NCBI GenBank assembly: GCA_951804945.1
Contig: OX638150.1
Span: 3,720,001 to 3,783,825, forward strand
From: Podarcis cretensis
Taxonomy: Eukaryota
DNA length: 63,825 nucleotides
Reading direction: 5' to 3'
Shown here piece after piece: positions 12,001-19,074 of this stretch. A program made the translations under genes and the position numbers. Positions within the stretch are counted from its first letter, which is position 1; every line of letters starts with the position of its first letter. The notes under the pieces were generated by a model, which made no database searches, was not told where the DNA came from, and was given only the letters and a program-made list of their open reading frames with translations.

Positions 12001-13126
12001 TAGACAGGTTAGACAGCATCTAATCAATCCTAAACAACCTGGAATTGCTGACTCTTTTCTTGTCAGGGTTCTCCTTGAGGATAAGATTGATACTATTAAA
12101 CTGGCTGTAACAAAATTCCTCTCGGAGGCAGTAAAAATCAGAAATCAGTATGTACAGGCTAAAGCTGCTCTTTTGGCCAGCAAGGTCAATCTTACATCTT
12201 AACAACTGTTGATATATACTATTGTTGTACTGTGTATTGTGGGTTTATAGACCACAATAAAGCTTTGTGTGTGTATTACATCACTCCCGTGAGTAGACCA
12301 CCAAGCTGAGTTACTACTAGGGTGAGATAGCTGCACTAATATTCACATTGTTTTGCAAAATGAAAGCTTCTGCAAAACTGGAATTCCGTAGGAGTTTATG
12401 CCCTGTGGACATGCAAAGTGCTATAGAACATGCAGGCTGTCTGGGTCAAGGAAGGGAGAATATGGCTCTGTTCCCTCTCCACCTTAATTTTGATAGGCCA
12501 GAACCCCCCCCCCCCATTTTCATACTTATAGTGATTTTTCTTAAGTGCCCAGGGTATATTTACAACAACCCTTGATGCAGGCCAGTTCATTTGCTTGGCC
12601 ACTGTACTTCTATACCTTTAAGGTCAAAACTGCACCTTCATTACCATCACACCAATCTTGATTCTTAACACATTGTATTTTAGTTACCATCATTTCTCCC
12701 ACCACTGCTTTATAGATCTAGGGTGCTCTACATTCAGTTCCTGAAGCCCAGGCAGATTATTGCATTTTCCAAAGCATTAATATGATTCTGAAAATATGTA
12801 TTATTAAAACAGGTAACAGAGAAATTTGAAATTCCACACTCCATCCCTGTCTTTATTTGAATTGATGCACTTATAAATCCTTATTGCAAGCTTTCAAGTT
12901 TATTGATAGTCCTAATCCTTAAACATAAAAGCAGCCTAGCAAAATGGTATCCTCATTCCTTCCTAAGATGTCATGCTGCTACCGCAGGTTAGCTGGTTCC
13001 TTACATCTGTTTTTTTCCCCTCTGAGAGCTTGAGGTAACCATTTTGTGAGTTTATACGCAGCATAGGCATTTGCTGTAGCTCAGCAGAGATTGATTACAT
13101 GTGCAATGATTCCAATGTAATAATCA

Positions 13127-13337
13127 AATAAATTAAAAAATTGTCCAGTAGCACCTTAGAGACATAGTTGATGTTTGTTCTGGGTATAAGCTTTCGTGTG
13201 CATGCACACTTCTTCAGATAACAGAAAGCTTATACCCAGAACAAACTTAGTTGGTCTCCAAGGTGCTACTGGGACAATTTTTCAATTAATTAATTAATTA
13301 ATTTTGACTGTGCCAGACCAACACAGCTACCTACCTG
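13127..13337. mobile_element. Penelope-like element remnant: inverted pseudo-LTR ends with hammerhead motif
   Basis: Arms at ~13135-13195 and ~13224-13282 are inverted copies; 13-bp TSD AATGTAATAATCA at 13114-13126 and 13338-13350; CCAACACAGCTACCTACCTGAA end resembles squamate Penelope termini. Confidence 0.85.
13184..13220 (-). ncRNA. Minimal type I hammerhead ribozyme motif (Penelope-type)
   Basis: Minus strand reads UAU-CUGAAGA-A-GUGUG(CAUG)CACAC-GAAAGCU-U-AUAC: CUGANGA and GAAA core boxes, 5-bp helix II, palindromic AGCU helix III, 3-bp helix I. Confidence 0.7.
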
Positions 13338-16043
13338 AATGTAATAATCATCACAGAATTTCTTGTCTACTACACATTACCCTATTAGACCCTGTTGGAC
13401 ACATTTGCCTAAGTTATTAGAGAGCTGGATTCAAAACCTATTTAGATCAACTGGATGGACTGGGGTAACCATGGTTCCCTCAGATGTTATTGGACTACAA
13501 CTCTCAACATTGCTGACCATTGGCCATGCTGGCGAGGGCTGATGGGAGGGAGTTGAAGTCCAACACCATTGCCCTGACTTAAGGTGCCTTGATAAGTAAC
13601 AATAACCTGAAAGAACATAGTTGTCTTTTAAAATAACAAGAATAATAACTGAATGCACATTCATCAGCCAGCATAGATTTTGGCCAGATTAATTTATTAC
13701 ATAAAAACCAAAGCAAAAAGACAAAGGCCAGAATAGCTTCCAACTGGAGCCTATTTTTTGAATACTGTGAATACAGTTCAATGCATTGTTTTGAACTTGA
13801 ATGTAAGTTGACTTTAAAAAATCAGGATAAAATATGTATGTTGTAGTTGTGCAATGATTTTTTTGTTATTTATGTTATAAAGTGTGATTTAAAAACAAAG
13901 ATGCAAAGAATTGACAGGTGTAGGGAACATGAAATGTAATTTAATTTGATAAATTGGTCTCTGAGTAAGTTGGTTTGTAGTGCTTTTCACCCACTTGCAA
14001 ATATGGTTGGCACTTCCAAAACATCTGCCATATAGCTTCCTTTACAAGTTTTAAGCCTATGTAAGAGAGCATTTGCAAAAAAGGCAGTAGAGTAAACTAA
14101 ATTCCTCCTGTAATCATCAACAGAACTGTTGTCTCTTGTACTGGGACTTCTCGAGATTGGCTGAGGACTCCTGCAAAAGAAAGTCCTTGAACCCCAGATT
14201 TCGTAGTGCTGTTTTCTCCCTTTGCCTGGAAGATAAGGAAGCCTTGAGGTTGGTGCCATAGTGGCGTGAGAAGGGGCCAGCTAACAGCCCCCAGAGACAG
14301 AGACCTTCTGCAGTCCCATGCTTGTGCTGACAGGCGGGATTTGGCTCAGGCAGTATTTGGAGATACTGTAAAGGGAACGGGAGGTGGGGTTTGTGCGGTT
14401 GCCACTGTTAATACCCCTGTATGTTAGGCTTAGGGAAGTAATGCTGGCAAATATTTGCATGCGAACACCAGGGAATCCCAATTGTACTCCGTGTTCTGGA
14501 GCCCATGGACTTCAGAAGGAAAAAAAAAATGTATTTAAATCAGGCATTAATACTTAATTGAGTTGGGTCCTGCAGACAGGTCTGGGACAATCCTGATAGT
14601 CATGAAGCCACAGTTTTTCCTGTGACATTTCTGGTCATGACTAAACTGGTGTAAGATCCCATACGAGCATAACCACTGTTGAGATGGACAGAAAAGGATG
14701 GGAAAAGACATGTAAGCAATGTACAAATAAATGAATTTCAGTGAAATGGTATTCCATTTTTGCCATTCTCTCTCTGTCCCCACCCTGCCCCAAAGTGCTT
14801 GCTTGGAATGAATTTAATGGTAGGCCGCAACTTAGAGGTACAGCGTCTGCCTTCTGTGCAGAAGGCCCCAGATTCAATTCTTGGCAACTCCCACTAGTAC
14901 TGGATATGCCCCCTGCCTGAAACTCTGGAGAGCTGCTGCCAGTCAGTGTGGGCAAAGCTGACCTAGATGAACCAATAGTCTGAGCCTGGATAAAGCAGCT
15001 TTCTATGTTTTGGCAAGAGGGGCGTTAGACTGGTGAGGGAACTTCTCTGTTTGGTCTAGCTGATCACTGAGGAGATATGAGTGTTCACTCTTTGGTGGCA
15101 GGCTGCTGTAGGAAGATACGGAGGCTTGTTTGATTGTTCATAAGCATGCATGGTAAGCAGCTCAGAAGGGGAACTGGATAAGGCCACAAGAGGCATTGGG
15201 GCCAACTCATTTGTTCTGAGCCGCAGTTGCCTATGAGAAGGAGCCAGTGTGTTTTGCAAAAGAGAAGACCAGCATGCTGTTGCAGTTCTGTGCCTTTCCC
15301 CAATTTGAGGTTATCTACACTGGAGGTTGCTGGAGCACCAGAATGGTTAGGTACCCTGTAGAGTCGGCAATTAATTTTAAGCAGGGGTCATACATGGAAT
15401 TGAAGTGTCAGTCACATGAGCTCTGTTCAATAAATTGTTCATTGGTTTAACTGAAACAAAGGCTTTGGCGGAGTGCTTTTTTCATAGTTCAGCTTGGTTT
15501 CTCACCCCAGGACACAGATGGCTCTTTAACCCTGTTTTTCAAGGGGGAAGAGCTCTTGTGGCTCTGCAGCCATCACAGTTGCTTCCTGGGCTTGTGGAAA
15601 GTGTGAGGGGCTCAGGTGTATAAGGAAGGAATTCTGAGGTTTAGAAATGGACAGCCTGCCCCAAGCTCCGGCTCTCCAGGTGGCCATTGCGTCAGGGTTA
15701 ATGCTAGTGCAGGTGTCACAGTTTTATGTCCACCCAGTAGCAAAGGGCAAAGGACACGATACATCTGCAGAAATGAGAGATCGCACAGCAACACCAACAG
15801 TGTTAGGTTGGGACTTTTTAGTTTGTGAGGAAAATGAAGTGAGCATTGGTGGCAGGGAATAATATTTTTTTCCTCCTCCTCTTTCAAGATTCCTGCATTG
15901 CAGGGGCTTGGACTAGATGACCCTCATGGTCCCTTCCAGCTCTACAATTTTATGATTCTAAGTACTAGAACTCAGGCTTACCCAGTGAGGCTGACAGGTG
16001 GCATAGTCAGGACAGACGAAAGTGCTTACTGTTGTTCGTAGTT

Positions 16044-18936: not shown

Positions 18937-19074
18937 GTCCACAGAGCAAAGTGTCCCGATGCCATCCTAATGAACACAGCTGCCTGGGCACTGACCTTTG
19001 CATCCACATGTCCAAGCTATGCAATGGCAAACGCGACTGTGTGGATGGTTCAGATGAAGGGCCCCATTGCCAAG
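18937..19074 (+). CDS. LRP1: LRP1 coding exon (exon 3 equivalent), LDLa repeat 2
   Basis: ttccag|GT acceptor, G|gtaagc donor; 138 nt; (C)[45 protein letters not shown]. Phase 1-1, in frame with the previous exon. Confidence 0.96.

Follow-up and report, generated by a model that had tools for sequence, protein, structure and literature searches.

The insert and its host intron

The window (the whole 63,825-nt stretch of Podarcis cretensis DNA that was analyzed) carries a short two-armed insert in an intron flanked by exons that encode LDL-receptor class A repeats, the downstream one being followed by two EGF-like exons. We take the host gene to be LRP1 and the intron to be intron 2, from the exon order, exon 1 being located beyond the window; the PDB matches of the host exons fail to separate LRP1 from its paralogues. 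The features are as follows.

849 to 971 (approximate), plus strand: upstream host exon, LDL-receptor class A repeat, LRP1-like (structure-database matches)
13114 to 13126, plus strand: left TSD, 13 bp (repeat match; TSDs of the family are mostly 12 to 14 bp, in 42 of 71 loci)
13127 to 13220, minus strand: tail-less arm, or run-off arm, pseudo-LTR from +5 to the U-rich tract near +100 (arm mapping)
13184 to 13220, minus strand: minimal type I hammerhead, predicted to be sequestered (motif match to features in PMC4209133)
13221 to 13223, no strand: head-to-head junction fill, 3 nt (one other genome match at ≤1 mismatch, in L281, with the tail on the opposite arm)
13224 to 13303, plus strand: tail-bearing arm, pseudo-LTR from +30 through the U-rich tract (arm mapping; the arm with its tail maps to 30 to 145)
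13304 to 13337, plus strand: tail of the Penelope-like element (PLE), ~35 nt between two inferred RT start sites (as defined in PMC11167929 and PMC8557442)
13338 to 13350, plus strand: right TSD, 13 bp (repeat match)
18960 to 19074 (start approximate), plus strand: downstream host exon, LDL-receptor class A repeat (structure-database matches)

As claimed in the initial annotation, the insert (13127 to 13337) measures 211 bp and stands between identical 13-mers, which match at 100% in the repeat analysis of the window. It is non-coding and consists only of two inverted pseudo-LTR (pLTR) arms, a description to which we add that the arms are unequal, with the tail on the right arm only, and that they are joined by the 3-nt fill. 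A perfect inverted 23-nt pair was found at 13173 to 13195 and 13224 to 13246, and the arms overall are 77% identical across 168 nt. With +1 set at the A of the TCAGT motif, found in longer copies shortly before the hammerhead, the left arm extends from the U-rich tract to +5 and the right arm starts at +30. The plus-strand arm indeed restarts inside the ribozyme core, beginning at 13224 (GAAAGC). The element is of a known kind, and the window insert is a head-to-head stub of it, with two arms and no coding sequence.

The minus strand reads CUGAAGA-A-GUGUG CAUG CACAC-GAAA-GC-UU-AUAC, a minimal type I hammerhead with a complete core, as had been proposed. The core runs from C3 at 13217, helix II (13209 to 13196) is a 14-nt perfect palindrome, GAAA occupies 13195 to 13192, and the predicted cleavage site lies at 13188/13187. 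As in the minimal hammerheads of metazoan PLEs (PMC4209133), we observed the conserved core boxes, an extra base after position 9 (between 9 and 10.1), the G10.1-C11.1 pair, a palindromic 15.2-16.2 and a short helix I. However, helix I of the window copy has 3 bp instead of the 4 to 5 bp of that class, and pairing with the opposite arm is predicted to lock the core; the weak helix I had been foreseen, and the family has 4 bp. Two raw matches to the core occur in the window, and only this one has a real helix II, the other having 3 loose pairs. Genome-wide, the 38-nt motif with a 4-bp helix I was found in 272 exact copies, with 0 in the reversed control. The Rfam scan gave no hammerhead model match; its 24 rows, none at gathering score, held miRNA-like or hairpin matches far below it, which we read as generic hairpins.

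Both strands of the stub are predicted to fold as long hairpins (−89.5 and −97.5 kcal/mol), with the core paired to the opposite arm in a 23-bp helix on either strand. A hammerhead-compatible fold of the stub carries a predicted penalty of 19.4 kcal/mol, with no core base more than 2.3% unpaired, so that the accessible core of an active dimer fold is lacking in the prediction. Under this model, the ribozyme is likely a passenger, and the window copy would neither cut nor move.

Contigs of four runs labeled as four organisms enter the insert from both flanks, and two of these contigs differ at 17 and 19 sites over the right flank of ~690 bp. No empty-site joint was present among the 15 matches listed (37 more were not shown). 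Because the contigs reach the insert from both flanks and the matches listed hold no empty site, the insertion is older than the split of the four organisms. The window stub is an old intronic copy that is shared between organisms and is likely inert.

The parent element and its copies in the genome

In longer copies, the upstream sequence includes a TATA-like box at −30 and, beyond it, a GIY-YIG frame. A protein search with that frame gave 2,290 candidates, of which 150 were scored, and many near-identical copies were found. An intact copy, L141, has an open frame of 925 aa with RVT_1 at residues 453 to 601 (E = 2.4e-11) and GIY-YIG at residues 823 to 869 (E = 3.4e-5), both matches exceeding the Pfam cut-offs. 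This order, RT and then a C-terminal GIY-YIG endonuclease, is that of EN+ PLEs, as are the inverted 5'-truncated pLTR, the one-sided tail and the variable TSD. L141 is built of an inverted pLTR with tail, a pLTR, the ORF and a tail-less pLTR; the pLTR is identical in kind to that of the stub, which bears out the PLE origin assigned in the initial annotation. Its RT-EN linker contains C-x4-C-xx-C upstream of the GIY-YIG region, fitting the CX2-5CxxC motif that marks Neptune/Nematis-type PLEs (PMC8557442). Judged by these sequence features, the parent is an EN+ PLE, probably of the Neptune type. The clade name follows from the linker motif, a mark of both Neptune and Nematis, and from Neptune being the vertebrate group that carries such a linker.

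An older subfamily, which includes the window copy, gave 3,640 exact matches of its 24-nt core, and a young subfamily gave 8,939 exact matches of its 33-nt core, both figures counting arms, not loci. A family sample drawn by likeness to the query is biased to the window junction, and counts were instead taken from position-ordered samples. These comprised 83 old loci (from the first 100 matches listed, with 3 overlaps dropped and 1 place left out) and 69 young loci (from the first 100 matches listed, with 9 overlaps dropped). Head-to-head pairs were found at 36 of the 69 young and 47 of the 83 old loci. Stubs, defined by both arms starting at or below −12, made up 25 and 36 of these loci, respectively, or about 4 in 10 sampled loci, and they sit in a continuous size series that reaches full length. 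Loci L319/L320 and L020/L022/L023 have common flanks and are segmental duplicates.

The junction pattern of the window type has 958 exact matches genome-wide, and the 71 loci found among the first 100 listed were used for junction analysis. They display 53 distinct fills, with untemplated bases at 37 loci, blunt joins at 19 and microhomology at 15. The TSD measures 8 to 16 bp at 56 of the 71 loci (12 to 14 bp at 42), and exactly one tail is present at 63, with none called at 6 and two at 2. When 11 distinctive junctions were searched genome-wide, 9 were unique and 2 were present exactly twice. One junction with a 2-nt microhomology occurs 44 times; the 30 copies examined include young, intermediate and old variants, and this recurrence is convergence. 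The arms within a locus agree at the subfamily-diagnostic site in 170 of 175 cases, and 2 more share a third base. Since the junctions differ across loci and are mostly unique, each stub arose anew. The first of two readings offered initially, an extreme 5'-inverted truncation, is the one that holds, with stubs that recur and junctions that differ from copy to copy.

The other reading, a tiny, non-autonomous and non-coding ribozyme family that spreads as a unit, did not survive the junction counts (53 distinct among 71 loci; 9 of 11 unique), and we regard it as highly improbable. It could appeal to the very many similar copies of ~200 to 240 bp, to the two junctions present twice and to the one further match of the window junction in 1.5 Gb. 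The count requested for this junction showed it not to be unique, its further copy being L281, but neither did it reveal a family. A spreading unit is also at odds with the size series continuous to full length, with most stubs being without a promoter, and with the twin loci described below, which carry swapped tails and of which L219 holds in both arms a variant lacking in L217. Likewise, the common internal junction of a SINE-like or MITE-like family is not seen among these loci. MITEs have symmetric terminal repeats with a TSD of fixed length; here, the tail is asymmetric and the TSD varies between 8 and 16 bp. Non-LTR retrozymes (bioRxiv 10.64898/2026.07.22.740005) resemble the stub in being non-coding and pLTR derived and in having a type I hammerhead, but they are head-to-tail tandems with a complete ribozyme in each unit, whereas the stub is head to head, with one core and a TSD.

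Ends of the arms and the template RNA

The cut site of the ribozyme is at +37/+38. Young arms end at +1 to +8, below a TATA/Inr-like site, in 39 of 112 cases and in the bin of the cut site, +36 to +40, in 1 of 112, and a ribozyme-cleaved RNA was rejected as the template for the young subfamily on this count. For old arms, the corresponding figures at BLAST resolution are 29 and 12 of 132, the +36 to +40 ends being scattered when inspected by eye and partly due to later insertions; they give a cleaved template no clear support in the old subfamily. Among the 71 junction loci, 25 have a long arm that terminates at +2, 9 at +3, 26 at +4 and 11 at +5, and none of the 71 passes upstream of +2, though the search pattern permitted it. 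A second stop at −12 to −9, seen in 9 young arms, was partly an artefact of a variant relative to the reference L141 and was not used.

The first untemplated base after +4 is C at 17 of 18 loci. Across the genome, +4 is followed by C in 1,680 matches, by T in 599 and by G in 288, with the templated A outside the count. Among the first 30 matches with C, 28 stop at +4, and several of them are solo arms; as these are joined straight to the flank, their extra C cannot stem from a partner arm. Partner arms beginning with C can supply some of the extra Cs. Where an arm ends at +2, the next base is A rather than C (10 of 10 cases), so that a second start or slippage at +2 is required. The window copy ends at +5, without the extra C. 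In insertions made by L1, copying of the cap leaves an additional G at the 5' junction (PMC11702581), and by analogy, the extra C after +4 is likely a copy of the RNA cap. The template would then likely be a sense RNA that carries a cap and begins with G+4; the ends at +2 would reflect slippage or a second start. The thousands of ends at +4 with an extra C also suggest that the template was not antisense and, with almost none at the cut site, they provide in-genome backing for an uncleaved template.

The +4 boundary might instead mark a splice acceptor, or a stop imposed by the structure of helix I, rather than a transcription start. The bases just upstream do resemble a pyrimidine tract followed by AG, helix I begins with +4, and in Drosophila virilis the 5' end of helix I is where the intron stops (PMC4209133). 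Nevertheless, +4 is not preceded by AG, a spliced RNA would extend into one shared upstream exon while the fills are diverse, a stall does not account for the excess of C over T and G, and the TATA-like box lies 30 nt upstream. We consider this explanation improbable and retain transcription start as the reading of +4.

The tail-less arm is the run-off arm at 52 of the 63 one-tailed loci (P = 1.7e-7), to which the window insert conforms; the opposite polarity was found at 11 of the 63 and also in several long inverted copies of the young sample. This polarity bears on the earlier suggestion that the orientation of the insert spares the host pre-mRNA from cleavage. The observation stands, as the core is complete on the minus strand and broken on the plus strand, but the selection invoked for it is unneeded, since on either strand the prediction has the core base-paired to the opposite arm. 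Selection for orientation is equally unneeded because the arm with the whole core follows the tail, that is, the insertion mechanism. A hammerhead active in the host transcript, with selection keeping intact cores antisense to genes, would agree with the intact minus-strand core and with the avoidance of introns by tandem retrozymes (bioRxiv 10.64898/2026.07.22.740005). It is extremely unlikely given the pairing predicted on both strands and the polarity that follows the tail; moreover, minimal hammerheads showed no cleavage as monomers (PMC4209133), and that of the anole Poseidon cuts only in the presence of the PLE protein (PMC11167929).

Joining of the arms and mirror twins

Overall, the insert in the window is a two-armed stub of a Neptune-type PLE, probably left by one landing in which both target ends primed RT on a capped, uncleaved RNA likely starting just before the hammerhead. 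The pLTR promoter, with its TATA-like box at −30, would give an RNA starting at G+4 or G+2, and the protein would nick both target strands. The cDNAs would begin at two internal sites, at about +100 (without tail) and about +140 (with tail), and the 5'-proximal pLTR copy would offer only 100 to 140 nt to copy, yielding a stub. The tail-less cDNA would usually run off the 5' end of the RNA, where a C would be added opposite the cap. The 3' end of this cDNA would be joined to the second cDNA bluntly, through microhomology or with a short fill. The joining may take place inside the hammerhead hairpins, either by a jump onto the second cDNA or by snap-back followed by annealing, both of which demand two primed strands. 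The precedent in vitro is a Poseidon protein, not a Neptune-type one: with the protein of the Anolis carolinensis Poseidon, PAc, each of the two target strands is nicked and extended, cDNA synthesis begins at two internal positions between which the tail lies, and the template is uncleaved RNA with the hammerhead near its 5' part (PMC11167929). In contrast to PAc, the parent described here has the CX2-5CxxC linker, and its start codon, an ATG downstream of the tail, is outside helix II.

Alternatively, the second arm could result from self-copying, a single cDNA or antisense RNA snapping back in the hammerhead hairpins. Consistent with this are the perfectly palindromic centers of L208 and L273, the private variants common to both arms and the usual polarity, which agrees with fold-back of a tail-less cDNA; for a rotifer Penelope, an antisense template with self-priming has also been proposed (PMC3846280). 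However, a tail-less cDNA cannot give a tail, so that a second primed strand is still required, while fold-back of a tailed cDNA would give the opposite polarity, found at 11 of 63 loci. The extra C at +4, in turn, indicates the 5' end of a sense RNA. We therefore consider self-copying unlikely and keep to priming from both target ends.

LINE-1 twin priming (PMC11702581) is similar in that both target ends are primed, with TSDs, microhomology joins and a cap-derived base, and ends from distant sites are able to join. The arms of L1 barely overlap and start at the poly(A), whereas here both arms copy a stretch of ~70 nt from internal sites. The inverted, one-tailed architecture is already known: the insertion scheme for EN+ Penelope includes an inverted 5'-truncated pLTR, a one-sided tail of 30 to 40 bp and a TSD (Fig. 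2 of PMC8557442), and Pen2a of Adineta (PMC3846280) has head-to-head arms, a one-ended tail, a variable TSD, TATA/Inr-like pLTR motifs and palindromes at the junction. Compared with Pen2a, the arms here are cut to ~95 to 115 bp, without an ORF, and their inner ends fall on one base with an extra C, features absent from the description in the text available for PMC3846280 and PMC8557442. Hammerhead pairs on opposite strands, 100 to 700 bp apart, are already known from Schistosoma (PMC4209133). The main text of PMC11167929, as available, has no 'palindrom', 'truncated' or passage on inverted insertions. In the literature searched, which excludes most subscription journals, we found no description of the stub, cap footprint, cut-site counts or twins; the supplements of PMC11167929 and PMC4209133 may bear on the mapping of ends. 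A single insert is of little weight, but the family is a natural data set on PLE integration, bearing on how inverted, one-tailed insertions are made, which RNA strand is used and whether a ribozyme cut is needed, all of them questions raised in the PLE literature.

Two pairs of loci each share a non-templated junction of their own that has no further copy genome-wide, namely L217/L219, which are 44.5 kb apart, and L242/L255, which are 867 kb apart. In both pairs, the flanks differ, each locus has its own TSD and the tails are on opposite arms. The variant common to both arms of L219 is missing in L217, which counts against a parent-daughter copy. An all-against-all comparison among 179 head-to-head loci gave only these two pairs plus the microhomology repeats, the twins having come from a sample confined to the initial 8 Mb of a single contig, which favors close pairs. 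The twins may have arisen by gene conversion from a neighboring copy, in which case half of them should retain polarity; both pairs are swapped (n = 2).

A model with one target site leaves the mirror twins unaccounted for. As a tentative possibility, PLE complexes could act on two targets at once, the tail-less cDNAs priming each other, so that one junction lands twice with the tails swapped (L217/L219, L242/L255 and possibly window/L281). If true, the stubs and the cap footprint would together be a genome-wide record of the PLE template (capped, sense and uncleaved) and of the joining step. Tail polarity and the mirror twins also yield direct predictions for the existing in vitro system. As for L281, which lies on another contig, it has the window junction with a swapped tail and other subfamily variants; a junction start like that of the window and L281 is also present in another locus listed, and their resemblance may be due to chance.

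An intact element and its ribozyme

Among the Penelope-like element (PLE) loci sampled in genome G000, a putative parent of the head-to-head stubs was found to be intact, and its arms are 99.6 to 100% alike.

L141:1244-4726 (G000:C2:71,847,000-71,853,500), full-length, intact PLE of the Neptune type, whose open frame spans 925 aa

Many identical copies of the PLE endonuclease were also found, which point to very recent activity. The cleavage triplet of the ribozyme is CUC in the young subfamily and CUU in the old one, to which the window copy belongs. Both subfamilies nevertheless retain the palindrome AGCU and a palindromic helix II of 14 nt, a pattern consistent with the ribozyme being under constraint in active copies.

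Mirror twins and duplicated loci

Two pairs of loci on contig C1 were recognized as mirror twins.

L217 (G000:C1:1,697,5xx) and L219 (C1:1,742,0xx), mirror-twin pair 1
L242 (C1:4,513,9xx) and L255 (C1:5,381,2xx), mirror-twin pair 2

Each pair has a single non-templated junction, which occurs exactly twice, at sites close together; the members have separate target site duplications (TSDs), and their tails are swapped. L020, L022 and L023 are segmental duplicates of one another, flanks included, and so are L319 and L320; L020 lies on the small contig C45, being 99.6% alike to the copies on C2.

Related structures and local features

Kilobase-sized head-to-head insertions were observed at L142 and L144, with arms 99.8 to 99.9% alike and one tail apiece; their anatomy is that of the head-to-head stubs, at large scale. 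At L392 (G000:C1:3,598,176), a stop at pLTR position +4 with an extra C is followed by the start of the ORF in reverse complement, as though the cDNA had switched onto another RNA downstream of the tail.

Within the left arm of the window insert, a local change at 13164-13172 resembles a short inversion for which the sequence of the opposite arm was the template, rather than point mutations. A second hairpin-forming fragment of a high-copy repeat, unrelated to the insert, lies 130 bp downstream (13483-13570).
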